Below are positions 1-30,762 of a stretch of DNA of 64,000 nucleotides, in pieces. The position numbers were made by a program, and so were the translations under genes. A model generated the notes under the pieces. It had not been told where the DNA came from, did no database searches, and saw only the letters and a program-made list of their open reading frames with translations. The stretch's first letter is position 1, and every line of letters starts with the position of its first letter. The DNA comes from Thermoplasmata archaeon (GTDB lineage: Archaea; Thermoplasmatota; Thermoplasmata; Halarchaeoplasmatales; Halarchaeoplasmataceae), in NCBI GenBank assembly GCA_046498385.1, contig JAWOAU010000059.1, positions 76 to 64,075 of the forward strand, written 5' to 3'.

Positions 1-82
1 TGGCCGATTCGCGCCGCAGAAATTCTTGGAGCGCGCGCAGCGGATGGTTCTGCCGGGCTGCTTGGTTGAAAAACTCTCTCAT
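1..82 (-). CDS. 5' end of an unidentified gene running off the left edge (about 27 codons visible: MREFFNQAARQNHPLRALQEFLRRESA...)
   Basis: Minus-strand ATG at 80-82 overlaps the TGA of the upstream Dam fragment (ATGA coupling). A strong GGAGGAGG Shine-Dalgarno sits about 7 nt upstream. The frame stays open to position 1. Too short to assign a family. Confidence 0.35.
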   Translation of the reverse strand, partial: MREFFNQAARQNHPLRALQEFLRRESA

Positions 83-549
83 CGTCTCAGACCTCCTCCG
101 ACACGGTAGCTGATGATCAGGACCTCTCCAGAATCTCGCGCGGTGATGCCCGGCCTGCGCCCAGTACCGCGTGGAATCTTGATGACTTGATTACCTGCAA
201 ACAGCGCGACGATGTCAGGGTGTGCGGAAGTAGTCAGTGCCCATGACACGCCACGCTTCTTCGCATTCTGCAGAGCGGATGCCAGTCGGCGATGGTCTTG
301 AAAGCAGAACCGCCCACCAATGTAGTGTTTGTTGACCAGCTCTCTCTTTCCAGGGCGGTAGGGGGGATCCGCAAAGACAAAATCGCCTGACTCGCACTTC
401 TCTATGACTTCTTCGAAGTCACAGCAACGGAGCCTAGCCCCGCCCAGGACACGTGAAACGGCCATCAGGCTCCCGAGACCTATCACCCACCTTCGATCCT
501 GGCCTCCATAACCAACGTTGAACTTCCCTTCCTGATTGTGACGCCACAT
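79..549 (-). pseudogene. Dam-family (D12 class) N6-adenine DNA methyltransferase, C-terminal half only; the N-terminal roughly 115 aa including SAM-binding motif I are absent
   Basis: FADPPY motif IV. The surrounding sequence aligns to Dam ('RYNxxGEFNVpfG' maps to RHNQEGKFNVGYG; 'SNHDT' maps to TSAHPD; 'RRSISSNGGTRKKV' maps to RGTGRRPGITARDS). An in-frame stop lies immediately upstream of the first Met at 565-567 on the minus strand. No N-terminal half is found in any frame. Confidence 0.6.
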
Positions 550-566
550 CCCCTTGAAGCAGGGTC

Positions 567-3500
567 ATGGACAGCGAACTTCACATTGAGCACGAAATGT
601 TTTATGACCCAAATTACGATGGAATGCCGGATGAGGAGATCGAACCGGCTGATAATCACGAAAAGATACACGCCATGTATGCCCCTAACCGTGGCATGCT
701 TGGCGCGGGTCAATATCACGGTACCCACGTAACCGGTACTGTTCTTGGTAACGCACCTCCCCGCGACGAGTACGTAAAACACGACGGTCATGGAATGGAT
801 GCACGGGTGATATTCCAGGACATCGGTCGTCAACTGGCTTTATCACCACCGGAAAACATGTACGAAGATGGTTGGGGTAGAAGCATGGACGAAGGAAGTT
901 ATATTCACACCAACAGTTGGGGCGGGGCCGGAGGTTATTCAGGACTTGCCATCGAAACAGATGAATTCACCTGGGATCATAGGGATTACACCATATTGTG
1001 GGCCGCAGGTAACGATGGTCCCGATCCCGAAACGATCATGAACCAGCCCCACGCAAAAAATGCTTTATCAATAGGTGCTACTGCCAATCACCCCATCGAA
1101 GATAACGTCGCCGGTTTCAGCAGCAGGGGCTACGCCAACGACGGTCGTATCAAACCCACCATATTGGGTGTAGGAATCTGTACCTCCGCCGATCAAACGG
1201 AAGATGGTTATGCTGGTCTGGGTGGAACTAGTATGGCCACTCCTGGTATAGCCGGACAGGTGTCTCAGGTAAGGCAGTATTACGAAGAAGGCTGGTACCC
1301 TATAGGATATGCTAACCCCAGCGAAGGTTTCAACCCCAGCAGTGCGCTTATCAGGGCCACCCTCATCAACGGAGCTGTAGAGGTATCAGGTAACGATGCT
1401 TACTTACACGGTGAGGAATTCCCCAATAGAGACCAGGGATTCGGTAGGAGCACCATCGACCGTGCACTGTACTTTGAATGGGATGAAAGGCGTTCTGTAA
1501 TATTTGACTCGTGGAACGAAGGTAACGCTCCTCTGGAACTCAGTACCGGAGAGAGCTGGTCTATGGATTTCGATGTGGTTGATGATGCTGAAGAATTAGA
1601 GGTAACTTTGGCATGGTCAGATTATCCCGGCGAAGGTGGTGCCGGAAGTATACACATCGTCAATGATCTTGATTTGGAGTTGGAGACACCGGATGGAACC
1701 CGATATGTGGGCAACGCATACACCGGACACAACCCCGGTTACTCGGAACCCGACCCCACTTCCAACATGTGGAACGGACCCAGGAGCGGCGAATGGGACG
1801 GGTTGAACGTTGAGGAAAATATACTCATGCTCCCGGATCACAATGATCTTCAAACTGGAACTTATACGCTAACGGTAACTGCACACAGCGTACCCAGCGG
1901 TCCTCAGCCCTTTGCGGTAGTTGTAAGCGGAGGTTTACAACCTATAATGGCTGAAGGCACCCCTCCATCTATAGATATCACATCCCCCTCTGCAGGAGAT
2001 GTGTGGGAGCACGGAGATGAGGTTGACATCATATGGACTACCACTGCCGGAGCTGATCCAATAGACTTCGTTGACCTTAGATATAGTTTGGATAACGGAG
2101 AGTCCTGGGAGTTCATCGCTGAAGGATTACCGAACGACGGCTCACTCACATGGACCGTTCCCAACGTCAATAGCGCCGAGAGTTTAATACAGGCACGTGT
2201 CATGGACAATGCAGGCCGTTATGATATAGACACCTCTGATATGTTTGAGATCATGGGTACTCCTCCGGCACCCCCTTCAGGTCTAGGGGTACATAAAGAT
2301 GGTGGACCCACCGTTGTTACCTTCGAAGACTTTGCCGACGGCAATTACGACGGCTGGGAAGTACACAACGGAAGTTGGGATGCATCCGAGGGATATCTAC
2401 AGGGCTATGGAAAGATATCCACTCCCGCCGTGATGGACGGAGAAGACCTGGATGCCTACGGTGTCTGGGAGTTTGATTTCCAGTTTACCGACATGGACGA
2501 TGCCGGACCTACGGATGCACAGATAATGAGGTTCAACTTTATATCCTCTGGAAACCCGGCGTCACCTTCGGGATACGTTATGACTGTTACCGGGCAGACC
2601 GCAGCCGGTCCTCAAGCAAATCTTTGGCCATTGGAAAACGGTGATGCAATCGGTGACGCACCGATACTAGCCGGTACTTGGACTGGCGGCACACAAGTCA
2701 GCACATTGAGGATCGAAAGAGATTTAAGCAATGAATTTACCATATATATCGACGGAGGTCTGGTTGGTACAGTTGTCGATGACACGTATGCAACTACCGA
2801 ATACATAGGTTTCAACCACGATCCGAATCCTTTGGGTGGGGAACCGCACATAGTACATAACGTTGGGGCGTTGACAGAACTCGAAGGCGAGCCCCACAAC
2901 ATACTAACCTGGGACGCTAGCCCCGATGATCCCGGCGAAGTCAGTCATTACAACGTTTATCGTTCGGAGGATCAAACAGGACAATACGAATTAATAGCAG
3001 AGGTAACCGCCGACGGTTCACAGGAGTATACATACGTTGATGAATACAAAGGTGAAGATGACGACATAACCTGGTGGTACTTTGTACGTGCGGTAGGTAT
3101 AAACGGCATGGAAGAGGACAACGAGAACACAGCGCCGGAACCTGCCGACGGTGAGGCACCTTCTATAACACTGACCAGGCCTGAGGGTGGTGAAACATTT
3201 ACAGCCGGAGAACAAGAAAATATCCTTTGGCAAACTGAAATAGGTGACAACCCCGTAGAGACTATAGATTTCAAGTACAGTACTGACGGAGGAGGTTCTT
3301 GGACTACAATAGAGACTGGTTTACCCGATACAGGTAATTACATCTGGACAGTGCCCGACGAAGCTAGTATTGACTCTCTGGTCGGTGCAACCGCTCGGGA
3401 CTCAGCCGGACGCACTGGTTCCGATGTCAGCGGTACGTTCATCATCGAAGGAATCCCCCCTTCACCTCCGGAGAATCTGATGGTTGAACATCATGGTACT

Positions 3501-4856
3501 CCCGAGGCCGTCGTTAACGGTATATTCGAAGGTGATTACGAACCCTGGGAGCTTACCAGAACGGTTGCCGAAGGCGAGGCACGCTGGGACTCGGAGAATT
3601 ATATTGAAGGAGGTTCCATCTATGTGGCGGTCGAGGCTGAAGGAGAAGGTACTATCCGCACAGAAGACTCCTATTGGGAACAGGATATAACTCCCACCTC
3701 TGAGGAGATAACGGTATCCGGTGCATTCAGAAAGAACATATTCTATGATTCCAATTCTGGAATTGGTTGGTCTTGGGAAACACATGTCCATCACGCTATC
3801 GTTGAAATCCTTGTCTACGATACCACGTCCGGATGGCAGACTGTACACATAGACCAAGACACATCCGTCGGAGATTCGGGCTGGGGTGAATTTGCCCCGA
3901 TTACTTATGTGCCTGATGGATATGCGGATTCGGTAAGGTTGCGTATGCATGTAGAGGCTGAAGGAGACACCGGCCCCGCGGGTGGAAACCATACCGCTAT
4001 AGGCGAACTATGGATGGATCATATCAGCGTGACCACAGAAGGGGCCGAGGGTACCGATGACAATCTACTCACATGGGATGCCAGCCCTGACGATCCTGAT
4101 TCGATAAGTCATTACAACATCTACCGTTCCGAAAGTGAGGCCGGTCCCTGGGAAATTCCCATAGGTAGTGTTGATGCCGATGGTTCACTGGATTACGAGT
4201 ACTTAGACGCTGGCGCGGGTACCGGAGACGATACGATATGGTGGTATGTAGTCAGAGCAGTGGGAACCAATGGTATGGAAGAAGATAACAGCAATGTGGT
4301 ACGTGAGCCAACCACGGAATTGGTCACCTACGACATTGAGTTGCATGCCCATATTAATGCGGATGGCTGGAACTTCGTTTCGTTCAATCTGATACCTGTA
4401 GAATCATCCCTGGAAGCCATACTGGAGCACTCTGACTACGGCATAGCTGGTAACTACGACAAAGTGATGTACTATGATGCATCTGCGGATAGTTGGCATG
4501 TTTATGTACCCGGACGACCGGACCATTTTAACAACCTTCAATCTTGGAACCATAGGATGGGTATCTGGATACGATTGACGGAGGATTCTACACTCACCGT
4601 AGAAGGAAGTATCCCGACTCAGACCACCATAACCTTATATCCAGGCTGGAACATGGTCGGTTTACCGAGTGCCCAAGGGGGAATTCATGATATTCCCAGT
4701 GAGGTCAGCAGGGTAGGACGATTCGATGCGGCGGCAGAGAACAATATAGTGTATGTAGACGTGCAAGGATTCCAATTCCAACCCGGACAAGGCTATTGGA
4801 TATACAACGGTGCGGATGTAGCTGTAGATTGGGTTGTGGACTACAATACGGAATAG
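567..4856 (+). CDS. Subtilisin-like (S8) serine peptidase with large C-terminal multidomain extension. Apparently N-terminally truncated (no signal peptide, propeptide or canonical Asp-box), so possibly a pseudogene
   Basis: His box HGTHVTGTV and Ser box GGTSMATPG are present and an oxyanion Asn region follows. The ORF begins 49 aa before the His box with an in-frame stop at 555-557. Downstream are two Kre9/Ig-like modules of about 95 aa, a lectin/jelly-roll-like module, two FN3-like modules (TWDASPDDP...HYNIYRS...WWYVVRAVG) and a C-terminal domain of about 172 aa shared with the M14 protein. Confidence 0.8.
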   Translation: MDSELHIEHEMFYDPNYDGMPDEEIEPADNHEKIHAMYAPNRGMLGAGQYHGTHVTGTVLGNAPPRDEYVKHDGHGMDARVIFQDIGRQLALSPPENMYEDGWGRSMDEGSYIHTNSWGGAGGYSGLAIETDEFTWDHRDYTILWAAGNDGPDPETIMNQPHAKNALSIGATANHPIEDNVAGFSSRGYANDGRIKPTILGVGICTSADQTEDGYAGLGGTSMATPGIAGQVSQVRQYYEEGWYPIGYANPSEGFNPSSALIRATLINGAVEVSGNDAYLHGEEFPNRDQGFGRSTIDRALYFEWDERRSVIFDSWNEGNAPLELSTGESWSMDFDVVDDAEELEVTLAWSDYPGEGGAGSIHIVNDLDLELETPDGTRYVGNAYTGHNPGYSEPDPTSNMWNGPRSGEWDGLNVEENILMLPDHNDLQTGTYTLTVTAHSVPSGPQPFAVVVSGGLQPIMAEGTPPSIDITSPSAGDVWEHGDEVDIIWTTTAGADPIDFVDLRYSLDNGESWEFIAEGLPNDGSLTWTVPNVNSAESLIQARVMDNAGRYDIDTSDMFEIMGTPPAPPSGLGVHKDGGPTVVTFEDFADGNYDGWEVHNGSWDASEGYLQGYGKISTPAVMDGEDLDAYGVWEFDFQFTDMDDAGPTDAQIMRFNFISSGNPASPSGYVMTVTGQTAAGPQANLWPLENGDAIGDAPILAGTWTGGTQVSTLRIERDLSNEFTIYIDGGLVGTVVDDTYATTEYIGFNHDPNPLGGEPHIVHNVGALTELEGEPHNILTWDASPDDPGEVSHYNVYRSEDQTGQYELIAEVTADGSQEYTYVDEYKGEDDDITWWYFVRAVGINGMEEDNENTAPEPADGEAPSITLTRPEGGETFTAGEQENILWQTEIGDNPVETIDFKYSTDGGGSWTTIETGLPDTGNYIWTVPDEASIDSLVGATARDSAGRTGSDVSGTFIIEGIPPSPPENLMVEHHGTPEAVVNGIFEGDYEPWELTRTVAEGEARWDSENYIEGGSIYVAVEAEGEGTIRTEDSYWEQDITPTSEEITVSGAFRKNIFYDSNSGIGWSWETHVHHAIVEILVYDTTSGWQTVHIDQDTSVGDSGWGEFAPITYVPDGYADSVRLRMHVEAEGDTGPAGGNHTAIGELWMDHISVTTEGAEGTDDNLLTWDASPDDPDSISHYNIYRSESEAGPWEIPIGSVDADGSLDYEYLDAGAGTGDDTIWWYVVRAVGTNGMEEDNSNVVREPTTELVTYDIELHAHINADGWNFVSFNLIPVESSLEAILEHSDYGIAGNYDKVMYYDASADSWHVYVPGRPDHFNNLQSWNHRMGIWIRLTEDSTLTVEGSIPTQTTITLYPGWNMVGLPSAQGGIHDIPSEVSRVGRFDAAAENNIVYVDVQGFQFQPGQGYWIYNGADVAVDWVVDYNTE

Positions 4857-5512
4857 CACTATAAGCCGATACTATAGGCACCTGTATGTGTTAAGTTCGC
4901 AATATCCTTTTGCACTTCTTCACCCGGTGCTCTATCCCCATAAGTTTTGCATCGTCTCTAATCTCCATTAGAGACATGAAACCTCTTAGCAGATATCATC
5001 GGGCCTTCTGTTTCGTTAGGGAGAATATATCCTTCAAAATTATTTCTATATCGGCGGTTTGGGTGACCACCTTGTTCGTCCGGCGGTACAGGGATTTCAT
5101 CGATGTACGGTGCCATGGTTTATTTCTCTTGATCGGATGATTTCTCACAGATAGAATAATTTTGGAGCTGTTTCCGAACAAGGTTTTGCTCAAAATCGAT
5201 TGAACGTTCATACGGGTTAAAAATAAAACAAGGACGTCGATATTTTTTTCCTTACACATGTTTTTTATCTCCCGAGATGTGTTCAGTATCTCGAAAATGT
5301 CACCAAGGGGATTTGTCCTTCCTTGTACCCCAAACAGATATGCCTGCCCTTGTATTCACAGGTGGGTTCGACGTGGTAAAAAGACAGGTATGTGACATCA
5401 TGTTCCCCTTTCATGAAAACTTGTTCCCAGTTGCACAGAGTTCCTCTCGGCACCTCCGCCTATTCTCAAACTGGAGATCACTATGAGGATGCTCTTTTTT
5501 CCTTCATGCCTT

Positions 5513-6477
5513 TTACTCCCTCCCCCGGTGCTTCAAAGACCTACGGTAAGTGTCTATGATGGTATCAACTACTTTTTGCTTTGACAGTTCACTTTCGTAA
5601 TATTCGATCATGTTCTTTTTCATGTTCGCCTTTGCTTCATGATCCTCCATGAGATAACCGAGTTTGTCTGCTATGTCTTCCTCATCCGGCTCCACCAGCA
5701 GGCCGTTGTATCCGTTTCGTATCTCCTTGGGACTCCCCCTAACGTTGGTTGCGATAACAGGTGTTCCGGTGTATGTCGCTTCCAGCAGCACACTGGACAG
5801 GGGCTCCGGTCATAGGGAAGGTACCACCACGATATCCGCCTGTTTGTATACTGAGTGTATCAAATCATGGCCTACCTGTCCCAGAAACTCAATGTTTGAA
5901 ATCGCCCTGCTTTCCAGTTGTTCTCTTTCGGGACCTTCTCCCAGCATGATTAATTTTGGAGTCCGTATTCATCCGATCAAAGGCTTTTATCAGCATATCG
6001 ACGCCCTTAATCTTGTATAAACTGCCCATATAAGCCCACCAGCACACCTTCGCGTCGGATATCGATCTTTTTCTTCGATCCCCGGATATCGGGTATGTTG
6101 ACCACATTGGTGATACGGCTTTTATCGATGCCTTCTTGTTCAAGAAGTTTGTTTATGAACCCGCTTAGACTGAAAAAATGTCCAAATGTTTTCAATACCT
6201 TTTTTCTCTTGATAAGATCCAGGTATAAGGCCAGCCAGAATAGCGGATTTACTTAAGATAAGTTCCCTTTGGGGCAGAAACTTACGTAGGAATTGATGGT
6301 GACGAAACTGGGTTTATCAACGTCAACCATGCGGGTCATGTTGAAAAAGTGTATTATATCGTACCTGTCGCTGATCCTCTCAAGCCCTCTTTTAACGCTT
6401 CTGTTGAAATGAAACTTACGTTTTAGATCGTCCGAAAGTGATGTGCACCCTGCATTGAGCTTTCTGAGAATCGTCAA
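5513..6477 (-). pseudogene. Family GT4 (GT1-fold) glycosyltransferase pseudogene split over at least 4 reading frames
   Basis: Four minus-strand fragments: 6253-6477 'DIIHFF' N-terminal motif; 6007-6195 'ITNVVNIPDIRG'; 5889-6143 'YMGSLYKIKGVDMLIKAF'; 5513-5791 'EATYTGTPVIATNVRGSPKEIRNGYNGLLVEPDEED' (classic GT4 C-terminus). They are in different frames, so there are multiple frameshifts. Confidence 0.65.
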
Positions 6478-6882: not shown

Positions 6883-9800
6883 ATGTTTAAAAACGCAAAA
6901 AAAAGTAAAGTGGTAGCTATATCTGTTTTATTGATTTTATCCATTTCTGCATATGGTATAACATCCCTTGGATATGTCGAAGATGTTCAAAGCACGAAAT
7001 ACACTGCTAATCGCTCACCGTACCCGTTCCCCGATCATTATCCCAGTGTCGAAGAACTCTACGATTGGTACGACGACCTGGTAGTAGAATTCCCCAATCT
7101 CGTCTCCAAGGTGCACATAGGCACGTCCTATGAAGGACGAGATTTATGGGTGCTGGAAGTCACTTCGGATGAAGATACACAGGTGGATTACAAGCCCGGG
7201 TTTTTCGTTGACGGCAACATGCACGCCAGGGAGTGGTCGGGTAATCAGGTATCGGCGTACTTCATGTGGAGGCTGCTCAATGAATACGATACCAACGAAA
7301 CCATCTACTGGCTGCTCAACAACCGCAGGATATACGTTATGCCCATGCAGAACCCGGATGGGTATACTTATGATGGAGACGGAGGAGTAGGAGGCGGAAA
7401 TAATTGGCGCAAGAACAGGAACGATTCCACTCCTACCGCTGCGATAGGTGTAGACCTGAACCGCAATTGGGATATAATGTGGGAAAGCGGTAATCCTGAT
7501 CCAGGCTTCGATGATTATCGTGGCGAAGCACCCTTTTCCGAGTACGAGAACTGGCACGAGAGAGATTTCATTCTTAACAACAGCATAGATTCATACCAGA
7601 ACATTCACAGCTATGCAGGTACCTTGCTGATACCTTTGTGTTACTCTTCGGACCCCTCACCTCATGATGATTGGTATCGAGGTATGGCATCCCATATGAC
7701 TTCCTTGACGTCCCTGATGGGTGACGAAAACAGCCATTACAGTTTTGGTCAGCCCCATGAAGAGATCGGTTACAGTGCCCCAGGAGGTGCCGGGGACTGG
7801 ACCTATGATGCCCTGGGAATCCAATCAATGGTATTTGAACTTGAAACCGGCGGCGGCGGATTTTATCCTGGCACGGATGACATAATGACCATAAACCAGG
7901 ATGTTGACGACTCCTTGGTCTATCAGTGCCGTGTCGCTGATACGGATTTGGGCGATGGCACAAATCATCTTTACCCACCCATACCGTACATTGTTTACGG
8001 AAGGGTGGAAGATCCCGAAGGCGTACCGGTAGCTGGAATGGAGGTTGTGGTGGAAAACAAAGATACGGGGGAAACCATATCCATAGACACGGATGGTAAT
8101 GGATACTACGAGTTGAACTACGGTAACCTGGTAGAACGCGGATACGCCCTCACCGATACGTTTCATATCTCCGCATGGACCAATTCACAGGAGTTCAACA
8201 TCGGTGATGAATGGGGTAGAAGGATCGACATGGAGGTTGTGGTTGGAGGCGTACCGCCGGAAATAACCCTAACATCACCTAACGGGGGTGAACAATGGCA
8301 TGCATTTGATGAGGAGGATATCACTTGGACGACAAATCAGGGTGACGACCCCATCGATCATGTTGATCTATGGTACAGTGTAGATGCAGGCACGAGCTGG
8401 GACCGCCTTGATACGGAAATAGACGATACGGGTAGTTACACATGGACGGTCTCCAACGAACACAGCCAGGAATGCCACGTACGTGCACGGGTAATAGATA
8501 GTTTGGGTAGATGGGGAGAGGATGTTAGTGATAACGTATTCGAGATCGTAGGCTTGGCACCCGGACCTCCCCGAAATCTTACGGTAGAGCATGACTCCGC
8601 TCCTCACATGGGGATATTCGACGATTTTGCCAATGGAAACTACGACAATTGGACGGTTTACGATGGATCATGGGATGCGACCTCCGGTTACCTACAGGGC
8701 CATGGTAGCATATCCACTCCCGCAGAGATGCACCAGGAAAACATAGGTGCATATGGTCGCTGGGAGATAGATTTCCAACTATCCGAGATCTCCGATGCCT
8801 CAGGATATCAAATCACGAGAAGCCATTTTATTCAGATCGATAACGCGGATCCACGTTATTCCAGCGGTTATTATGTAATAATTACAGGTAATATCGGTGG
8901 TAACGGACAGATCAACCTCTGGAGGTGGGACAACGGAAGCACACCGGGTAGTACGACCGCCGGTGCATCCTGGAACCCGAATACAGACACAAACACATTG
9001 GCAATAGAGAGAGACGAGAGCGGTGTATTCACCCTGTACCTCAACGGTGCCACACTGACCACGGGAACGGATAATACCTACACAACTAACCAATACTTTG
9101 GATTCAGGCACAATGAAAATCCTTCTGGAGGTGATGATCATATCATACATGAGATCAGGATTGAGACCATGGGTGATGGAAAGGAACACAATATTCTTAC
9201 ATGGAATCCAAGCATCGATGACCCCGACGAGGTGAGCCACTACGATATTTATTGCTCGGATTCGCCAGAGGGGCCGTGGGATGAAAGTATGTTACTGCAC
9301 AGTGTCCCAGCGAACGGTTCCGCTGAATACCACCACCTTGATTCCTTTAAAGGCATGGCAGATGAAACCTACTGGTGGTATGTGGTACGTGCGGTTGGAG
9401 AGAACGGGCTTGTAGAGGAGAACGTCAACGCTATACAGGAGCCCGGTGCGGAAATTATTACATTCACTTTGGAGTTGTACTCGGGTGGAGATTCCAACGG
9501 CTGGAACTTTGTTTCATTTAATCTGACATCTCCTGATAGCTCATTGGAAAACATACTTGAAAATCCGGACTACGGTATATCAGGCAACTATGATCGGTTG
9601 ATATACTTCGACGCTTCCGCCGGAACATGGCTTTCATACGTTCCCGGTAGGCTCGAGTGTTTCAACAATCTGCAGTCGTGGGACCATACCATGGGGATCT
9701 GGATAAGGATGACAGCGGATGACGGACTTACCATAGAGGGCACCACGCCAACAAATACTACTCTCACACTGCAGCCCGGCTGGAACATGGTAGGACTGCC

Positions 9801-9990
9801 CAGTTCGGATGTGGGCAATCATAACCTACCGGCGGAGGTGACCACGGTGGGCTACTTCCAAGCAGCGGAGGAGTACAATGTTGCCTATACCACCATTGCT
9901 GATACCTTCATATTCGAACCAGGACAGGGTTACTGGCTGTACAACAGCGGGAACCAAACGGTAGCCTGGACCGTAGATTACAGGTTATAA
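6883..9990 (+). CDS. Secreted M14 zinc carboxypeptidase with carboxypeptidase-regulatory-like domain and C-terminal multidomain extension
   Basis: N-terminal signal peptide (KVVAISVLLILSISAYG). M14 zinc motif 'GNMHAREWSG'. Transthyretin-like CarbopepD_reg domain (GRVEDPEGVPVAGMEVVVENKDTGE...TDGNGYYEL). Then Kre9/Ig-like, lectin-like and FN3-like modules, and a C-terminal domain of about 173 aa paralogous to the S8 protein C-terminus. GGAGG Shine-Dalgarno 8 nt upstream. Confidence 0.85.
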   Translation: MFKNAKKSKVVAISVLLILSISAYGITSLGYVEDVQSTKYTANRSPYPFPDHYPSVEELYDWYDDLVVEFPNLVSKVHIGTSYEGRDLWVLEVTSDEDTQVDYKPGFFVDGNMHAREWSGNQVSAYFMWRLLNEYDTNETIYWLLNNRRIYVMPMQNPDGYTYDGDGGVGGGNNWRKNRNDSTPTAAIGVDLNRNWDIMWESGNPDPGFDDYRGEAPFSEYENWHERDFILNNSIDSYQNIHSYAGTLLIPLCYSSDPSPHDDWYRGMASHMTSLTSLMGDENSHYSFGQPHEEIGYSAPGGAGDWTYDALGIQSMVFELETGGGGFYPGTDDIMTINQDVDDSLVYQCRVADTDLGDGTNHLYPPIPYIVYGRVEDPEGVPVAGMEVVVENKDTGETISIDTDGNGYYELNYGNLVERGYALTDTFHISAWTNSQEFNIGDEWGRRIDMEVVVGGVPPEITLTSPNGGEQWHAFDEEDITWTTNQGDDPIDHVDLWYSVDAGTSWDRLDTEIDDTGSYTWTVSNEHSQECHVRARVIDSLGRWGEDVSDNVFEIVGLAPGPPRNLTVEHDSAPHMGIFDDFANGNYDNWTVYDGSWDATSGYLQGHGSISTPAEMHQENIGAYGRWEIDFQLSEISDASGYQITRSHFIQIDNADPRYSSGYYVIITGNIGGNGQINLWRWDNGSTPGSTTAGASWNPNTDTNTLAIERDESGVFTLYLNGATLTTGTDNTYTTNQYFGFRHNENPSGGDDHIIHEIRIETMGDGKEHNILTWNPSIDDPDEVSHYDIYCSDSPEGPWDESMLLHSVPANGSAEYHHLDSFKGMADETYWWYVVRAVGENGLVEENVNAIQEPGAEIITFTLELYSGGDSNGWNFVSFNLTSPDSSLENILENPDYGISGNYDRLIYFDASAGTWLSYVPGRLECFNNLQSWDHTMGIWIRMTADDGLTIEGTTPTNTTLTLQPGWNMVGLPSSDVGNHNLPAEVTTVGYFQAAEEYNVAYTTIADTFIFEPGQGYWLYNSGNQTVAWTVDYRL

Positions 9991-11112: not shown

Positions 11113-14100
11113 ATGGTTTCGGCAACAGTGAAAGATAGGATAATAATACATTTGTATACTTATCATGCTTCTCTGACTAAGCAAGGGATGCCCTATGAAT
11201 TATCTCAACCAGGTATTGCTGATGCCATAGGCATAAGCAGACCTCATCTGAGCCAGGAAATACGGAAGATGATACAGGATGAACCAACCTTGGTTAAAGA
11301 AGAGGTCATGCGGGTAAAAGGATTAAAGCGAAAAAGAAAGGTGTATTTCCTGACTCCGAAAGGAGTTTTAAAGGCACAATCATCGGTAGAAAAATTCAAT
11401 GAAGAAAGCATAACTGTTCTTACTTCGGATGGTAAAAAAGACGTCAAATTAAAAAACATCGGTACACATATAAAAGGGAACAACCCTCTTGTTACCGCTC
11501 TATCCAGAGTAGATGCAAAGGGTGTGTTGGACCTTACCGAGGCAAGAGAGTTCAAGGAGGATATATTCATAGACCGCAAAGAGGAAATGGCGGTACTTAA
11601 AAGCTCATTGAAAGAGGCAAGTGAAGAAGGCGGGAAAGTTTTTTTCGTCAAAGGAGATCCAGGTATCGGCAAGACCAGACTCCTAGAGGAGTTTGAAAAA
11701 CATGCATCTAGCGAGGATTTTATCTTTCTTTCCGGCAGAGCATATTTTGAGAGTTCGGACCCTTACCTTCCTTTTAAAAAGGCCTTCGAAGGCACAAAAG
11801 ATTTGGATCACTCTATGGATATTATCTATCCCGATGAAAAAAGAACAAAGGCGGAAGATAAGAATATGTTTGATTATCATAGGAGGACAACTTTCTTTGA
11901 GATAACCAAAGACATTAGGCACATGATAGACAAAAAGCCAATGGTCATATTTTTAGATGATATACAATGGGCGGATTCTGCAACACTGCAGTTGATTCAT
12001 TATCTTTCTGAGAATTTAGAAACATCGCCACTGCTGCTGATCGCCGCCTTTAGACCACAGGATGTAAATATGAACACTCTTTTAAAAGAGATCGTTCAAC
12101 GGATGAGGCGGGTAGGAACCTACGAGGAGATAGAATTAAAACCCCTAAAGTGGAAGCATACAAAAGAGATCATATCCAATATGTTGGGCGTATCCAGGAC
12201 ACCACCTGAATTTGTTAGATTACTTTATGAACTATCCCAGGGTAATCCTCTTTTCATTAAAGAGTGTGTAAAGAGTTTGATCGAAGAGGGCAATTTGGAT
12301 CCAAAGAGGAACCGATATCCCAAGGACCCTAGGCACGTCACCATACCCAATATTATTGTCAGCATAATTGAGAGAAGATTCAGCCAGTTATCCGAAGAAA
12401 CGCTTAAGATGCTCCAGATAGGCTGTATTATAGGAGAGGAAATACCCTTCGATCTGCTGTTAAAAGTTTGTGGGATGGACGAACTCGATGCATTCGACCA
12501 CATAGACATACTGTTGGGAACAAGTATATGGAAGGAGTTACCGGATCAGGACAAGTTTGCCTTCAGCCATGCATTGGTGCATCTAGCGGCATACAATCGA
12601 ATAAGTGATATCAAGAAAAGAAAGTTGCACAAGGCGGTGGCCGAGAAACTCGAAGAGCTATACGAAGAAGACATAGAAAAACATCATTCCAAACTAGCGA
12701 AGCATTTTGAAAGGGCGGGCATGATAGATAGGTCGATATCTTATTATTACAAAGCCGGTAAGAGCGCTGAAACAGTATATGCTCAAGAGGACGCTTTGGA
12801 GATGTATCAGAACGCTCTGAGGTTGTGGGATGGAGAGGATAAAGAACCAGGTATGAAACTGATGGAAAGTTTAGGCGACGTAAATTCTCTTTTAGGTGAT
12901 ATATCCTCCTGTAAGAAGTATTATGAACGGATATTAGATGAAACCGATAACGAGGTTACCGAACAAAGGATGTATCGTAAACTAGCCCGGTTGTGCGAGA
13001 CCCAAGGTGATTTTCGGAGGGTGAAAGAACTTGTAGACAAAGGTCTCGATAGCTATAAAAAGGATAACATCGAGGCGTGTAGATTGTATGAGATCCGGGG
13101 CTGGACATTGATGCAGACAGGGGATTTCCAAGGTGCGGAAGAGATGTTCATTACGGAAAGGCGTCTTTCTGAAGATTTAGGAGATCGAAAGGCCCTCAGC
13201 GATTCAAATCATAATCTAGGTACTTTGATGGTGTACAAAGCTAATTATGATGATGCCCGTCGATATTTAAAAGACGCTTTGAGGATACGTGAAAAGATCG
13301 GGGACAAAAAAAGCATAGCCAAGTCTTTGAATAATTTAGGCGTAGTTTACAAATGTACGGGGGACATAGAAGATGCTTTGGAAACCTATCAACGGTGTTT
13401 GGAAATAGAAAAGGAGATAGGTGATAGAGGAGGGATCGCGGCAACATCAGCCAATTTGGGGACTCTTCAGTATATGAACAATAATCCCAAGGAGGCCGGG
13501 GAGAACTTTGATCATGCCTTGGAGATATTTAGAGGTATAGGTGATAAGATGGGCGTTGCCATGGCCTACAATAATCTAGGCATAGTTCAGTTAGCCATGG
13601 GTGATCTAGAGAGTGCCCTCGAGTATCAAAAGAGAGGTCTTGAACTCCGAAAAAATGTGGGTGATAAACCCGGCTTGGGGATGACCCATGGTATCATAAG
13701 CAGCGTTTTTATCTTGAAGGGAGAACTGGATAAGGCTAAAGAACATATCGATGAGGCCTTTACTTTTTTCGAAAAGATCGATGATGTGAAAGGAATGGCT
13801 CTCATGAAGTCTCTTAAAGGAGATATTAAAAATGAGAACGAGCAGTTCGACGATGCAATAAGTTTGTACGAAGAAAGCCACAAAACTCTAAAACAGATCG
13901 GAGAGAAGTTTGAAAACATATCCAACTGCTGTCGACTGGCCGAGGTATATACTCATGTGGGAAAGTTAACCGAAGCCCGTAGGATGATAATCGAAGGCAT
14001 TATGCTTTCGAAGATGGTGGGTACGGATTATGATAAAGAAGTCTTCCTTAGGATATTAGGGATGGTCCTTCGAAAAGAAAAAAACTTCAAAGGCAGTTTT

Positions 14101-14310
14101 AAGGTTTTGAACAAAGCGGCAGGGCTCCTTGAAAAGAATAAAAAGTACATGGAACTTGCTAGGGTCTATTATGAACTAGGTAAAACTTTTTTGGAGGTCC
14201 ATGACGTACCTAATGGCAAAAGAAATCTTGCCAAGGCGAGAAACAAGTTCAACTCCATGGACATGGAACGCTGGAGTGCCCGAGCCCAGGGGATGTTAGA
14301 CGATATCTAA
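11113..14310 (+). CDS. Multidomain regulator: N-terminal winged HTH, STAND/AAA-type NTPase, C-terminal TPR array
   Basis: wHTH-like N-terminus (SQPGIADAIGISRPHLSQEIRKM). Walker A GDPGIGKTRLLEEF and Walker B-like VIFLDDIQWAD. At least 8 TPR repeats (NNLGVVYKCTGDIEDALETYQRCLEIEKEIGD...). Paralogous to the ATPase domain of the protein at 41768-43234. Confidence 0.7.
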   Translation: MVSATVKDRIIIHLYTYHASLTKQGMPYELSQPGIADAIGISRPHLSQEIRKMIQDEPTLVKEEVMRVKGLKRKRKVYFLTPKGVLKAQSSVEKFNEESITVLTSDGKKDVKLKNIGTHIKGNNPLVTALSRVDAKGVLDLTEAREFKEDIFIDRKEEMAVLKSSLKEASEEGGKVFFVKGDPGIGKTRLLEEFEKHASSEDFIFLSGRAYFESSDPYLPFKKAFEGTKDLDHSMDIIYPDEKRTKAEDKNMFDYHRRTTFFEITKDIRHMIDKKPMVIFLDDIQWADSATLQLIHYLSENLETSPLLLIAAFRPQDVNMNTLLKEIVQRMRRVGTYEEIELKPLKWKHTKEIISNMLGVSRTPPEFVRLLYELSQGNPLFIKECVKSLIEEGNLDPKRNRYPKDPRHVTIPNIIVSIIERRFSQLSEETLKMLQIGCIIGEEIPFDLLLKVCGMDELDAFDHIDILLGTSIWKELPDQDKFAFSHALVHLAAYNRISDIKKRKLHKAVAEKLEELYEEDIEKHHSKLAKHFERAGMIDRSISYYYKAGKSAETVYAQEDALEMYQNALRLWDGEDKEPGMKLMESLGDVNSLLGDISSCKKYYERILDETDNEVTEQRMYRKLARLCETQGDFRRVKELVDKGLDSYKKDNIEACRLYEIRGWTLMQTGDFQGAEEMFITERRLSEDLGDRKALSDSNHNLGTLMVYKANYDDARRYLKDALRIREKIGDKKSIAKSLNNLGVVYKCTGDIEDALETYQRCLEIEKEIGDRGGIAATSANLGTLQYMNNNPKEAGENFDHALEIFRGIGDKMGVAMAYNNLGIVQLAMGDLESALEYQKRGLELRKNVGDKPGLGMTHGIISSVFILKGELDKAKEHIDEAFTFFEKIDDVKGMALMKSLKGDIKNENEQFDDAISLYEESHKTLKQIGEKFENISNCCRLAEVYTHVGKLTEARRMIIEGIMLSKMVGTDYDKEVFLRILGMVLRKEKNFKGSFKVLNKAAGLLEKNKKYMELARVYYELGKTFLEVHDVPNGKRNLAKARNKFNSMDMERWSARAQGMLDDI

Positions 14311-25646: not shown

Positions 25647-25870
25647 ATATACCGTATCAGCGATTACAGATATGGATTAATAATCTTTCCCCGGAAGATT
25701 AAGATAAACTGCAGCGGCGCATGTTATTTCGTCGAGGTAAAGAAGATAGTTAACACATTTTATTTGAAATTAGACAAGAACTCACAACAAACTATCTCAA
25801 GAAAGGGCCGATTTAGCAAAACATTTAAATACAATTCATAATCTTCGTGGTAGTTAGAGGTAGAATAACC

Positions 25871-28800
25871 ATGAAATGGAAAAAGATGATGAGCCTGCTA
25901 TTGGTTGCTGTTTTAATCGGCAGCCTCTTTGCAGCGTTTGGAAGCAGTCTAGCATCGGCAGAAGGTGAGTATGTCGATGAGATACGACTGGAAGTAAGAA
26001 TGGAACAGAGTGTTGGTGTCGGGGATGCGGCCACAGGAGTGATAGACGCATTCCTCCAAGCAGTAGATGGACCGACCTACGATGGAATTGACGACGAATG
26101 GAAAGCTAATTTGATTCCATTGGAAAGCTTCGGTAGCTACACAGAGTTTTCGTACAATACCGCTTGGACCGAAGACTCCGGATTCGAAGTGGATACCACC
26201 GGCGATGGAGATCTACAAGTGAACCCCTTCGCAATGAGGGAGATACGTTTCGCAACTAACTTCATAGTCAGCAGACAGGAGTACGTTGAGGAACTCTACG
26301 ATGGGTTTTCCATACCTATGTATCAGGCCATATCTCCAAGTAACCCATCTTATGATGCGGAACTTAGACAGATAGACGAAAAATATGGCTTGACCTATGC
26401 AGGTGACTTCGAAAGGGGATACAACATGATACAGGATGCAATGACTGATGCCATGAACAATCCAGACATTGCAGGCGAGATACGGACCCCTGAAGACTCT
26501 CCTACTAACTACTGGCAGTACAAAGCACCCGGTGGTGCTTGGGAAGATATCGAGGTACATATGCTGATCCGTGTGGAAGACACCCGTCAAGAAATAGGTC
26601 TAAACCTTGCAGATCTACTCGAAGATTGTCACATAAAGGCAGAACGGGATGTGCAGGATAGAGACGCCATAGATATATGGCTATTCACAGACCCTGCGGA
26701 CATGGAATGGAGCTTGTACACCGGTGGTTGGATTTCATCGGCTACAGTAGCTTACCAGCACGCCACACCTGTTCAGTTCTACACTGATTATTACCCATAT
26801 ATGCCTGGAGGTATCTTTGGAGAAACAAATAGATACTACCACCTGAGAGACGAGCCCTATGCCCAGGAGTTGCTTGAGGATTGGGCAAATCCATTGATGG
26901 CTGGACAGATATCGGATGAGGAAACCTACTGGGAGTATGTAAGGCATATTTCAGATGTCGGCGTATACCAGGGTGCACGGGTATTCCTGGAGAACTCGGC
27001 GGATATAGTCCCGTTGAATGATGAGGCGGTAGTTGAAGTCGCCGCCGATGCGGTAACTGGATGGTCTCAGATATTTTCACCAAGGACTCTCAAGACCCAG
27101 GACGGCACCTTCACTGCAGCTCAATTCTCCGCCGCAGGTGTATTGTACATGGATAACTTCAACAATATTGATGGTTCATCCGATTACTACGGCATCCTGC
27201 AACAGAGAATATGTTTTGACCCCGGCACAACCTTAGATCCTAGCAAAGGCACTTCCATACCTGTTAGGGCGGACTTCGTGGACGATAACGGCGAGTATAT
27301 GCTGGATATGGACTATCATTTCGATAACGACGGAAACTTGGTAAAGGAACTCCCGATACCGGATAACGATAACGTCTGGTTCTACGACGTGCAGGCCGAG
27401 GAATGGATCAACGGCGGTCATGAATATGTACCGATAATGGAAGGTGATCCACCTGTTCAGACCGGTGCTGATCTTACGGAAGTCGATACGGTGGCAACCG
27501 CTGTTACCTACGACTATCACCTTGGTAAGTGGCACTCGGGACACGATTTGACGACCCGGGACATACTAGCTTGGCACGCCTTTTCAATGCAGCTTTCATA
27601 CGGTCCAGAATGGGGTGCCGTAGGAGACCAGTACTACCATGTAGGCTACGGTACTCAAAATAGACCTTATTACCAAAACGTGAAGGCGATCGAGGTCATC
27701 GACGCAGAAGAAGGCATATTGAAATTCTACGGTGATTACACCTTCCCTGCCGAATCAGAGATGGCTGGTTACTATGGTACATTCCCACAACACCCTTGGC
27801 AGATGTACGAGGCGGTCTCTCATCTAAGAGGTCAAACGGAGCTTGCATCTACCGATACGGTCTACGAATGGAGTAATATACCTGGTGCAGAATACGTTCA
27901 CTGGATCAGCTCATCCCAGACCGTTGACTACAGCGATACCCTTGCCAACATAGCCGATGATGGATGGATACCACCTTATCTACAGAGTGGTCCGACGCCG
28001 ATCACGGTTGGTGAGCTTGAGAACGAGATCGATGCGATACGTGGTTTCCAAGATCAATATGAACTATCGTTCATTTCTCAGGGACCTTTCATCTTTGTAC
28101 GGTACGATACAGCTAACTTAGTTGTTGAAATGGAGAGACACCCGTACCCCGATTACCCGTTACCCGACGATTACTGGAGAGACAAGTTGTACGTAGCTGG
28201 AATGCGGCATGGAACCATGACTGCACCAACCGAGGTCGTAGCCGGTGAAGCACTCGAAGCAGATGTGCGAGTCAGGGTATTCGAACAATATCCTCTCAGG
28301 AGAACACGAAACCTGGATCCCGCAGTGGATGACTATGAGGCTGAAGTCACCATATACGACGAATTCGACACAGTAGTAGACACTTTCGAGCCGGATTATG
28401 TGAATACAGATGGATCTTATCTTGCGGTTACCTTGCCCGGCAGCTTCACGACTGATCTTGAGGAGGGGTTCTATACCATAGAATTCCAGTCCAAGTTAGT
28501 TGACGAGGTAGCTACATCGGTTTCCAGTGCATCTTTCTGGCTTGCTGAGGAGAGTGCAGGTGGCCTCATCAACCATGAACTAGAGATCGAACCTACCAGC
28601 GGATATGCACCGCTAGAAGTTGACATCACGGTAAGTGCCGAAAACACCGGTGGTGAAGAACTGAGTGAGACGATAACTCTTGACGGTGCCGATACGGGAT
28701 ACACACTTAACGTCTCGGCCGGTGAAACCGCAGAGGAAACCTTCACACATACATTGGATGAGGTAGGCGAGTATACCTTTGAATTTGGTCCTGTATCTAG

Positions 28801-29443
28801 GGAAGTATCTGTAGTGGAAAAACCACCAGTCCCGGCAGAGCTGGAGGATTTCGAACTGTCGATCACCCCGACGACCGGAGATGCACCATTGGATGTAGAG
28901 ATATCCTTAAGTGTAACAAACACCGGTGAAGAGGATACGGAAGCTGTTCTGTACAGAGGTACTGAAGCCTATGAGACCTTTGATGTCTCACCTGGTGACT
29001 TCGAAACTACAATAAACAAAACCTTGGACGCAGGCGTTCACGTGTTCTACTGGGGCGAAGAATCTGTTCTCGTCAATGCAAGAGAAGATGTCGTTCCCGG
29101 TGAGCCTGAACTGGTGAACTTGGACTTAGGTGTGGAGCCGACCTCCGGAGAGGAACCGTTGGAAGTCACGATCTCCGTAAGTGCGGAGAACACAGGCGAC
29201 GCCGATGGCGAAGTAGATGTCATCATCGACGGTTCTATCGAGTACACGTTAACGGTACCTGCCGGTGAAACCGCAGACCACGAGTTCACTTACGAGTTCG
29301 AGAACCACGGAAACTACGACGTAGAGTTCGGTGATCTAACCGAGACTGTAGAAGTTGAGGAAGAAACCCCTGGATTTATGTTCCTCTTGCTGGCAGTGAG
29401 CGCCGTATTCGCGGTAGTGATCTACCACGTCAAGAAGCGGTAA
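25871..29443 (+). CDS. Extracellular solute-binding protein (family 5, Opp/Dpp-type) with three C-terminal CARDB-like repeats and a PGF-CTERM archaeosortase signal
   Basis: Sec signal (MKWKKMMSLLLVAVLIGSLFAAFGSSLASA|EG). SBP_bac_5-like body (the ORF track starts at 25847; the start here is chosen at MKWKK, which has a GAGGT Shine-Dalgarno). Three repeats of about 85 aa (PLEVDITVSAENTGGEE...TLDGADTGYTLNVSAGETAEETFTHTLDEVGEYTFEFG). C-terminal ...EETPGFMFLLLAVSAVFAVVIYHVKKR, which is PGF, then TM, then basic residues. TATA-like TTTAAATA at about 25823-25830. Confidence 0.7.
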   Translation: MKWKKMMSLLLVAVLIGSLFAAFGSSLASAEGEYVDEIRLEVRMEQSVGVGDAATGVIDAFLQAVDGPTYDGIDDEWKANLIPLESFGSYTEFSYNTAWTEDSGFEVDTTGDGDLQVNPFAMREIRFATNFIVSRQEYVEELYDGFSIPMYQAISPSNPSYDAELRQIDEKYGLTYAGDFERGYNMIQDAMTDAMNNPDIAGEIRTPEDSPTNYWQYKAPGGAWEDIEVHMLIRVEDTRQEIGLNLADLLEDCHIKAERDVQDRDAIDIWLFTDPADMEWSLYTGGWISSATVAYQHATPVQFYTDYYPYMPGGIFGETNRYYHLRDEPYAQELLEDWANPLMAGQISDEETYWEYVRHISDVGVYQGARVFLENSADIVPLNDEAVVEVAADAVTGWSQIFSPRTLKTQDGTFTAAQFSAAGVLYMDNFNNIDGSSDYYGILQQRICFDPGTTLDPSKGTSIPVRADFVDDNGEYMLDMDYHFDNDGNLVKELPIPDNDNVWFYDVQAEEWINGGHEYVPIMEGDPPVQTGADLTEVDTVATAVTYDYHLGKWHSGHDLTTRDILAWHAFSMQLSYGPEWGAVGDQYYHVGYGTQNRPYYQNVKAIEVIDAEEGILKFYGDYTFPAESEMAGYYGTFPQHPWQMYEAVSHLRGQTELASTDTVYEWSNIPGAEYVHWISSSQTVDYSDTLANIADDGWIPPYLQSGPTPITVGELENEIDAIRGFQDQYELSFISQGPFIFVRYDTANLVVEMERHPYPDYPLPDDYWRDKLYVAGMRHGTMTAPTEVVAGEALEADVRVRVFEQYPLRRTRNLDPAVDDYEAEVTIYDEFDTVVDTFEPDYVNTDGSYLAVTLPGSFTTDLEEGFYTIEFQSKLVDEVATSVSSASFWLAEESAGGLINHELEIEPTSGYAPLEVDITVSAENTGGEELSETITLDGADTGYTLNVSAGETAEETFTHTLDEVGEYTFEFGPVSREVSVVEKPPVPAELEDFELSITPTTGDAPLDVEISLSVTNTGEEDTEAVLYRGTEAYETFDVSPGDFETTINKTLDAGVHVFYWGEESVLVNAREDVVPGEPELVNLDLGVEPTSGEEPLEVTISVSAENTGDADGEVDVIIDGSIEYTLTVPAGETADHEFTYEFENHGNYDVEFGDLTETVEVEEETPGFMFLLLAVSAVFAVVIYHVKKR

Positions 29444-29692: not shown

Positions 29693-30751
29693 ATGCCAGC
29701 CACATTCAAATATTTCTTATTAAGATCTGCAAACGCCTTAATCGTGTTGATTGTAGTGGTGTTCATAATCTCTTTGCTTTTTAATGCCCTTTCGTCGGAG
29801 ATGGTAGAACAATTGATAGCTGAACGGATGCAGGCATATTCGATGCGGCTCTCTGACGAGCTCACAGAAGAGCAAAGAAGACAGGCAATGGATAATCACG
29901 AAGAATATCTAAGAGATTTTTACGGCACCGAGGACCCGTTTTATGTTAGGGTGACTAGAACTACTAAAGATACTTTAAGTTTTAATTTAGGTACAAGCCA
30001 CACAGATTATTATTACGGGGCGGAAGATGGCCGAGTGACCACTATAATCATGCATTATCTGCCAAGGACTATCTTATTGTTTTCCTCCGCGGCGATAACT
30101 TATATTATTCTCGGGATTGCGATCGGACTCAAAACCGCACAAGTTGCGGGATCTAAAATAGATAAGTTTGTATCTATATTTGGTATAGTCACCAGCAGTA
30201 TGCCTATGTGGTGGGTAGGTATGTTAGTAATATTGATATTCGCCTATGAGCTTGGCTGGTTCCCTGCCTCTTCTTTACCCTTCCCGGACAGTACCGGTTT
30301 GGCGTACTATAAAGGTGTGATGCATAGGATGGCCATGCCTTTAGGCACGATCGTCTTCGTTGCATTCGGTGCACGTGCATGGACTACTAGAAACATGGTA
30401 ACCTCTGTTTTACAGGATGATTATATCATGGCTGCTAGAGCAAAAGGGGTTCCGGAAAATCGTGTCATCTACGGTCACACATTGAAGACCGCGTCCCCTC
30501 CGATCATAACCAGTGCCATTCTGGCTTTCTTATTATCTATCGGTGGAGCAATGATCACTGAAGTAATTTTTAACTGGCCTGGTATGGGATTCCTTTTGAG
30601 AGCGGCCATATTCCAGAATTCGGACTTGCCGGTTATTATGGGTATTGTCTTTATAACAACTGTGCTGTGGGTAGTTGGATATTTAATTGCGGACTTACTG
30701 TATGGATATCTGGATCCCAGAGTTGAAGTTGGAGCTGAGAAAAGAGTGTAA
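29693..30751 (+). CDS. oppB: Oligopeptide/dipeptide ABC transporter permease (OppB/DppB type)
   Basis: BPD_transp_1 signature (EAA-like loop: MAARAKGVPENRVIYGHTLKTA). 6 TM. Long periplasmic loop after TM1, typical of OppB. Confidence 0.85.
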   Translation: MPATFKYFLLRSANALIVLIVVVFIISLLFNALSSEMVEQLIAERMQAYSMRLSDELTEEQRRQAMDNHEEYLRDFYGTEDPFYVRVTRTTKDTLSFNLGTSHTDYYYGAEDGRVTTIIMHYLPRTILLFSSAAITYIILGIAIGLKTAQVAGSKIDKFVSIFGIVTSSMPMWWVGMLVILIFAYELGWFPASSLPFPDSTGLAYYKGVMHRMAMPLGTIVFVAFGARAWTTRNMVTSVLQDDYIMAARAKGVPENRVIYGHTLKTASPPIITSAILAFLLSIGGAMITEVIFNWPGMGFLLRAAIFQNSDLPVIMGIVFITTVLWVVGYLIADLLYGYLDPRVEVGAEKRV

Positions 30752-30762
30752 GGTGATTTCAA

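Follow-up and report, generated by a model that had tools for sequence, protein, structure and literature searches.

The stretch analysed here (the window) comprises 64,000 nucleotides of contig JAWOAU010000059.1 from a Thermoplasmata archaeon (assembly GCA_046498385.1) and encodes an S8 subtilase and an M14 carboxypeptidase that end in the same C-terminal domain. This domain is an all-beta module of about 170 amino acids. It consists of two tandem units of about 80 amino acids, formed by internal duplication, each with G-W-N at its start and G-Y-W near its end. The family, its two-repeat architecture and its fold are absent from the curated libraries that we searched, and a C-terminal surface-targeting module as a kind is already known. 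Going by its architecture and distribution, we predict that the domain is a non-covalent cell-surface retention or targeting module, and we put the probability of this reading at about 45%. The two copies and the repeat units of the first are as follows.

4338..4844, forward strand: C-terminal domain copy 1, residues 1258-1426 of the S8 protein, followed by N-T-E and the stop codon at 4854-4856.
4338..4610, forward strand: repeat unit 1 of copy 1, with GWNFVSFNL at its start, the long conserved loop VPGR..HFNNL..W inside and GIWIRLT..TLTVEG at its end.
4611..4844, forward strand: repeat unit 2 of copy 1, with TLYPGWNMVGLPS at its start, PGQGYWIYN inside and VDWVVDY at its end.
9472..9981, forward strand: C-terminal domain copy 2, residues 864-1033 of the M14 protein, followed by R-L and the stop codon at 9988-9990.

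The initial annotation had regarded the two C-termini as homologous, with about 55% identity by eye. A BLASTP comparison (window:4338-4853 against window:9469-9987) bore this out, giving 101 identities in 170 positions (59%), one gap and an E value of 2e-70. The motif blocks named as shared were all found in the alignment, with the correction that QPGQGYW reads EPGQGYW in the M14 copy. Both copies are members of our family alignments A1 and A3, in each of which copy 1 is the first sequence, and both contain all the family motifs, that is, the two GWN/GYW units and the N-x-L loop in unit 1. The S8 copy ends as DWVVDY-NTE-stop and the M14 copy as AWTVDY-RL-stop. A tblastn search of the window found only these two copies and no third. 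By codon analysis, nucleotide identity between them was 0.63 and third-position identity 0.42; dN was 0.31, dS was saturated (2.3 by LWL85, undefined by NG86) and dN/dS was about 0.14. The saturated dS and the dN/dS of about 0.14 indicated that the copies are an old duplication kept under purifying selection, not a recent copy or a product of gene conversion. No transmembrane segment was found in the last 200 residues of the S8 or M14 protein (maximum KD19 0.91 and 0.54, respectively), and the combination of PGF motif, transmembrane helix and short basic tail was present at neither C-terminus, in agreement with the earlier description of a domain that has no transmembrane segment and no PGF-CTERM.

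The AlphaFold model of copy 1 (pLDDT 91.2, pTM 0.84) is all-beta, with one 5-residue helix. Alignment of half 1 with half 2 of A3 by hhalign covered 67 columns at 25% identity (E value 4.6e-4, probability 33%). In distant members the second half re-matched profile positions 25-88 with E values down to 2.4e-9, and in P0196, from a Methanosarcinaceae metagenome-assembled genome (MAG), the two units are nearly identical in pattern. The consensus of the repeat unit is L-x-x-G-W-N-[LF]-[IV]-S ... Y-D ... W-x-x-Y-x-P ... N-[DN]-L ... G-[YI]-W-I. Unit 1 carries a long conserved loop, R60 ... N65-x-L ... W70, and unit 2 of the halophile subfamily has no W-x-x-Y-x-P/N-x-L loop. Conserved positions are rich in W, Y, N and R; R60, N65 and W70 lie in this long loop, where pLDDT is lower, and not in strands. 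The mean net charge of the domain in close homologues is -19, and D+E makes up 16-17% of the window proteins.

Two variations were observed within the domain. P0104, P0128, P0132, P0147 and P0156 carry an insertion of about 200 amino acids that follows profile position ~48 and separates the first strands from the remainder of the domain. In the non-halophile subfamily (e.g. P0176-P0209; L081 10001-11644), N-x-[ST] sequons are conserved inside the domain, examples being Y-N-R-T-x-G-L-N-N-L-T-F and N-Q-[ST]-I. These sequons suggest that the domain itself may be N-glycosylated.

We searched sequence and structure libraries for a known relative. Neither Pfam-A 2025 nor NCBIfam r20 contained a match at E<=1 to the window domains or to the domain of 20 distant members; the earlier view that the domain stands outside the named families thus held for close and distant members alike. 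A profile of 43 members matched 0 PDB sequences at E<=10, and tblastn gave no match among PLSDB plasmids. Full-text literature searches returned no paper with the motif strings of the domain, and no description of it was found among work on the lineage or on archaeal C-terminal sorting.

The family is large. An exhaustive search of 1.84 billion cluster representatives with a hidden Markov model matched 199 proteins at E<=1e-30. Relaxing the threshold to 1e-10 and then to 1e-3 raised the number to 3179 and 7212, and these weaker counts are upper bounds because the profile took in about 50 positions of the preceding FN3-like module. The single pattern LxPGWNMVG, searched in genomes that represent each GTDB species once, led to 277 confirmed loci, of which the best 80 were analysed. 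All 80 belong to Thermoplasmata MAGs of soda and salt lakes, with Ca. Halarchaeoplasma, Haladaptatiplasma and Saliniplasma, the Kulunda B1/T1/CS sediments and Great Salt Lake among the hosts and sources. Among these best 80 of 277 loci, five MAGs have 8-12 complete copies each. Paralogues had a median identity of 55-58% both within and between MAGs, and the window shared no DNA at >=85% identity with the 80 related loci. The host lineage, represented by MAGs only, is believed to be a halophile of the 'salt-in' type (PMC11332174). Members of the family at 25-40% identity abound elsewhere, in non-halophilic Thermoplasmata (among them Methanomassiliicoccales and one complete genome of 4.2 Mb), in Methanosarcinales and in ANME-2; such distant members were also found in one ANME-1 (Methanophagales) MAG and one 'Ranarchaeia' MAG. 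Given this abundance of the superfamily in non-halophiles, we rejected the idea of a halophile-specific solubility tag. We also rejected a bacterial origin for locus L012, which lies on a 6.5-kb contig labelled Candidatus Sumerlaeota bacterium (PWGE01000106.1). Its protein is 67% identical over 719 amino acids to a Thermoplasmata protein bearing the same C-terminal domain, and the contig is therefore probably archaeal, from the same soda-lake sample, and was mis-binned.

The position of the domain is nearly constant. It lies within 12 amino acids of the C-terminus in 154 of the 162 proteins of the close set, most of which end in W-T-V-[EDN]-Y followed by the stop. Of the 88 complete copies at the genomic loci, 71 are followed directly by the stop codon and a further 15 end within 5 amino acids of it. 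Among 118 members of the distant subfamily, 117 have the domain end no more than 6 amino acids from the C-terminus, mostly with W-x-V-P-L. None of the 162 close-set proteins has two complete copies; in the five that gave two matches, an insertion divides a single copy. Of 133 full-length members, 122 (92%) have a hydrophobic signal segment at the N-terminus, and none has a transmembrane-like segment in the last 200 amino acids. The question raised in the initial annotation, whether the domain also ends other secreted proteins in relatives, could thus be answered positively: the domain follows unrelated N-terminal domains in proteins with signal peptides.

Pfam analysis of 55 members illustrated how mixed this cargo is. 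The matches included NosD/beta-helix (7), Peptidase_C25 (6), GLUG (5), fn3 (4), PQQ propellers (3), S8 (3), M14 (2), M28 (2) and C1 (2), with PAD_porph, Amidase_3, GH18 and a PETase-like fold as single cases. A metallophosphatase and ice-binding-like domains are also among the cargo, and the C25 peptidase comes with its propeptide. In distant members the range extends to PKD, cohesin, PPC, sialidase, alginate lyase and FG-GAP. Such unrelated cargo makes one common substrate unlikely and one common location plausible.

We propose that the cargo protein would be exported by its N-terminal Sec-type signal peptide, and that the C-terminal domain would then serve as a common 'address' module, binding non-covalently to one conserved envelope component of the producer. 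The ligand could be a glycoprotein of the S-layer or elsewhere on the surface, a glycan, or a protein that serves specifically as receptor or scaffold. Adhesin-like proteins, peptidases and other hydrolases would in this way be kept at the surface beside the peptide uptake system. The pattern of one terminal copy on many cargo proteins, the missing membrane anchor and the conserved aromatic/Asn/Arg loop favour an address module. The uniform strong conservation across paralogues, together with the dN/dS of about 0.14 at saturated dS, fits a partner shared by all of them. Binding as such, a ligand on the surface of the producing cell and the role of the conserved loop as binding site are all inferred.

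The same beta-sandwich, with its many conserved aromatic and Asn/Arg residues, could instead be a lectin-like or carbohydrate-binding module (CBM) that binds an external polymer or other cells, such as detritus, cell walls, exopolysaccharide or consortium partners. Many of the cargo proteins are polymer hydrolases or adhesin-like, and a signal peptide that stayed uncleaved as an anchor would make the domain the distal tip of the protein. However, CBMs usually vary in position and copy number, whereas this domain is nearly always terminal and, in the close set, never occurs as two complete copies. The cargo (peptidases, PAD, phosphatase, propellers and beta-helices) is also too mixed for one substrate, and no CBM or lectin family matched the domain by sequence. 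We therefore regard a lectin or CBM role, the leading rival reading, as rather doubtful.

S8 is the commonest cargo among the close relatives, with about 30 listed proteins carrying an S8 head. This distribution recalls the halolysins, S8 peptidases of halophilic archaea which require their beta-rich C-terminal extensions, beta-jelly-roll domains, for folding and stability, and it raises the alternative of a folding, stability or oligomerisation domain for large exported proteins that has no address function. Several observations make this very improbable. The domain also occurs on many non-protease proteins and in non-halophiles; it gave no sequence match to the halolysin extension or PPC (PF04151). 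PF04151 lies upstream of the C-terminal domain in P0324, P0328 and P0343, so PPC and the domain are distinct modules. Finally, uniform conservation across unrelated cargo suggests an external rather than an intramolecular partner.

Several findings weigh against a retention or targeting module. In eight proteins, about 5% of members, the domain is internal and further domains follow it. A free C-terminus is thus not essential, and the domain is not a strict terminal signal. The flanks of the 80 loci contained no conserved partner or receptor gene; the only recurrent neighbours were further domain-bearing cargo genes and a MalT-like regulator. In addition, other surface proteins of the same window are anchored by other means. 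The SBP_bac_5 solute-binding protein (25847-29443, forward strand, 1198 amino acids, with a CARDB domain) ends in ...TPGFMFLLLAVSAVFAVVIYHVKKR, a PGF-CTERM-like tail of TPGF, a transmembrane helix and HVKKR, so that the organism has an archaeosortase-type lipid anchor. A surface protein of 1027 amino acids (37314-40397, reverse strand) has CarboxypepD_reg/MG4/Big_1-like repeats and a C-terminal transmembrane helix, after which comes an unusual tail of extremely acidic repeats (EEEELFEEEE...). Likewise, in the complete Thermoplasmata genome CP070672.1, domain proteins adjoin transmembrane-anchored surface proteins. Given the PGF-CTERM and transmembrane anchors of other surface proteins, anchoring as such needs no such domain.

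The domain is accordingly an additional kind of C-terminal module alongside PGF-CTERM, not a replacement for a missing one. PGF-CTERM with archaeosortase A resembles it as an archaeal C-terminal signal on surface proteins that is present in the same genome, but the domain has no PGF motif, transmembrane helix or basic tail. It is folded and soluble, and these differences indicate a mechanism separate from PGF-CTERM.

In the internal-domain proteins P0060, P0046, P0087 and P0077, a conserved module comes after the domain; it begins with ...STWNTE..GVSNDDQIQLPLE..G.YDF.V.WGDG. and may resemble the N-terminal region of BspA-like surface repeat proteins.

Another possibility is that the domain is a sorting or processing signal, read after Sec export by a dedicated machine and then removed or swapped for a covalent anchor, as in the C-terminal domain (CTD)/PorU-like arrangement of the type IX secretion system (T9SS) of Bacteroidota. 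The T9SS CTD is also a beta-sandwich at the extreme C-terminus of signal-peptide cargo, with dozens of cargo proteins per genome, and the family studied here shares both this position and the many cargo proteins per genome. It also has a conserved end, W-T-V-[DE]-Y in halophiles and W-x-V-P-L in others. The overlap in cargo is striking (C25 gingipain-like, PAD_porph, M14, S8, beta-helix and adhesin-like proteins); T9SS cargo of Porphyromonas includes gingipain C25, PPAD and the M14 enzyme CPG70. However, the close homologues of the domain (best 80 loci) are all in Thermoplasmata, and archaea have a single membrane, so that a second translocation step is not needed. The domain is no seven-stranded Ig-like sandwich of 70-100 amino acids, its 170 amino acids being about twice the size of a T9SS CTD, and the CTD models PF18962 (Por_Secre_tail) and TIGR04183 gave no match at E<=1 to the window domains, the full proteins or distant members. 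Moreover, no conserved candidate processing enzyme adjoins the genes, the N-terminal boundary shows no conserved cleavage motif, and the internal copies with domains after them argue against obligatory recognition of a free end. Taken together, these points make a sorting or processing domain improbable.

We also compared the domain with other modules that hold secreted proteins at a surface. GW modules (PF13457), SLH (PF00395) and CWB2 of Gram-positive bacteria are tandem repeats of about 55-80 amino acids, usually at one end of unrelated secreted enzymes or adhesins, which provide a non-covalent hold on the surface. The domain recalls GW modules in the size of its unit and in its conserved Gly-Trp. 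It differs in that GW and SLH models gave no match at E<=1, no SH3-like or SLH structure was among the fold matches, and the domain has exactly two units in one compact fold in host archaea that have no teichoic acid or secondary cell-wall polymer. In the dockerin-cohesin system (PF00404), one C-terminal copy with an internal duplication is likewise found on many enzymes, a likeness that would imply a scaffold or receptor; a cohesin domain is combined with the C-terminal domain in the distant members P0185, P0307 and P0329. The domain is nevertheless all-beta and about 170 amino acids long, whereas dockerins are helical, EF-hand-like and about 70 amino acids long. Pfam gave no match to dockerin type I, and the duplicated Ca-binding loop-helix motif is missing from the all-beta model. 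By analogy, the domain appears to act most like GW, SLH, dockerin or T9SS CTD modules, yet it belongs to none of them: their sequence models gave no match, it differs from them in size and secondary structure, and no fold match connects it with them.

A bolder version of the address-module reading is that Thermoplasmata and Methanosarcinales/ANME share a display system in which a double-GWN tag on dozens of exported proteins would be read by a dedicated receptor, scaffold or processing machine. We consider this unlikely. If true, archaea would have a functional equivalent of the T9SS-CTD or dockerin-cohesin systems, with a fold that has no solved relative.

The S8 and M14 proteins are alike beyond the terminal domain, in a cassette of modules that precedes it.

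1983..3146, forward strand: shared cassette in the S8 protein, with a Kre9_KNH-like Ig domain (1983-2252), an unassigned module of about 200 amino acids (~2289-2876) and an FN3-like module (~2889-3146).
3150..4316, forward strand: second cassette in the S8 protein, with a second Kre9-like module (~3150-3446), a different beta-rich module and an FN3-like module (~4044-4316) before the C-terminal domain.
8275..9456, forward strand: shared cassette in the M14 protein, with a Kre9-like module (~8275-8550), the 200-amino-acid module (~8605-9177) and an FN3-like module (~9184-9456).

S8 residues 424-877 align with M14 residues 412-871 at 44% identity, and S8 residues 1137-1426 with M14 residues 747-1033 at 54%; the second Kre9-like copy of S8, residues 862-1027, aligns with M14 residues 456-619 at 43%. 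The order of modules is the same in both proteins, and the S8 protein carries the cassette twice. The initial annotation had described upstream modules shared in the same order, and these identities of 43-54% confirmed it. Its labels fared unevenly. The Kre9-like assignment is backed by a Pfam Kre9_KNH match in S8 (E value 1.3e-8). The lectin-like and FN3-like labels have no Pfam support in either protein, and PDB sequences include no relative for the 200-amino-acid module or the FN3-like module. The two catalytic heads are not related to each other, and the nearest relatives of each head elsewhere bear the same kind of tail. Judged from the S8/M14 alignment and from the tails of these relatives, a common C-terminal cassette on different catalytic heads is real and not recent, which supports the proposal of a cassette shared by unrelated heads.

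The two genes differ in their state of preservation.

567..4856, forward strand: S8 subtilase gene, 5'-truncated, 1429 amino acids, with Pfam Peptidase_S8 at residues 44-293 (nucleotides 696-1445) covering profile positions 49-288 only.
6883..9990, forward strand: M14 carboxypeptidase gene, intact, 1035 amino acids, with Peptidase_M14 at residues 60-339 (nucleotides 7060-7899) and CarboxypepD_reg at residues 371-412.

The M14 protein has a signal peptide within residues ~1-28 (hydrophobic window 10-28, KD19 2.11). The S8 open reading frame (ORF), whose protein is identical to library protein P0018, has no signal peptide and no catalytic Asp region, about 300 amino acids being absent at its N-terminus. 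When it is aligned with its nearest full-length homologues, P0089, P0025 and P0019 (59-61% identity), its first residue falls at their residue ~300; all three begin with a signal peptide. The reading frame of the ORF upstream of 567 is closed by stop codons. From the match of residue 1 to residue ~300 of the homologues and the missing signal peptide and catalytic Asp, we judge that the S8 ORF as it stands is a truncated gene, not an intact secreted hydrolase. The statement that the domain ends two secreted hydrolases therefore stands for the M14 protein and not for the S8 ORF.

Upstream, a D12 N6-adenine DNA methyltransferase fragment (79-549, reverse strand), itself 5'-truncated (Pfam profile positions 122-241 of 253), meets the truncated S8 gene head to head, and both N-termini and any promoters are absent. 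The junction at about 550-566 is either a deletion of both 5' ends or a chimeric assembly join. Between the S8 and M14 genes (4996-6143, reverse strand) there are short ORFs, including the C-terminal part of a group-1 glycosyltransferase. This remnant (5513-5791) covers PF00534 positions 109-169 only and looks like a decayed or frame-shifted glycosyltransferase gene.

Domain-bearing genes are often in tandem in the related loci, as they are in the window. Downstream of the M14 gene lies an HTH-AAA_16-TPR (MalT-like STAND) regulator (11113-14310, forward strand). MalT-like homologues (25-33% identity, 660-1030 amino acids) were found within 3 kb of domain genes in 9-10 of the 80 related loci (L027, L032, L044, L057, L059, L060, L071, L073 and L079). 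The regulator may control the domain genes or may simply belong to an abundant paralogue family. The window also encodes an Opp/Dpp-type peptide ABC transporter, with permease genes at 29693-33900 after the solute-binding protein. Related sediment Thermoplasmata are known for extracellular C25, M14, M28 and S8 peptidases (PMC6461988). The combination of peptide transporter and peptidases in the window fits surface proteolysis.

Retention of secreted enzymes at the archaeal surface is known mainly through lipid anchors (PGF-CTERM, lipobox) and transmembrane anchors. The domain described here adds a third, very common C-terminal module, present on hundreds to thousands of archaeal surface proteins. 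Its carriers include surface proteins of the methane-cycling ANME/Methanosarcinales and extracellular peptidases that are thought to drive protein breakdown in sediments and soda lakes. Annotation and secretome prediction would benefit from a definition of the family, which would also give a handle on the receptor or ligand, and the domain could serve as a display tag for archaeal biotechnology.

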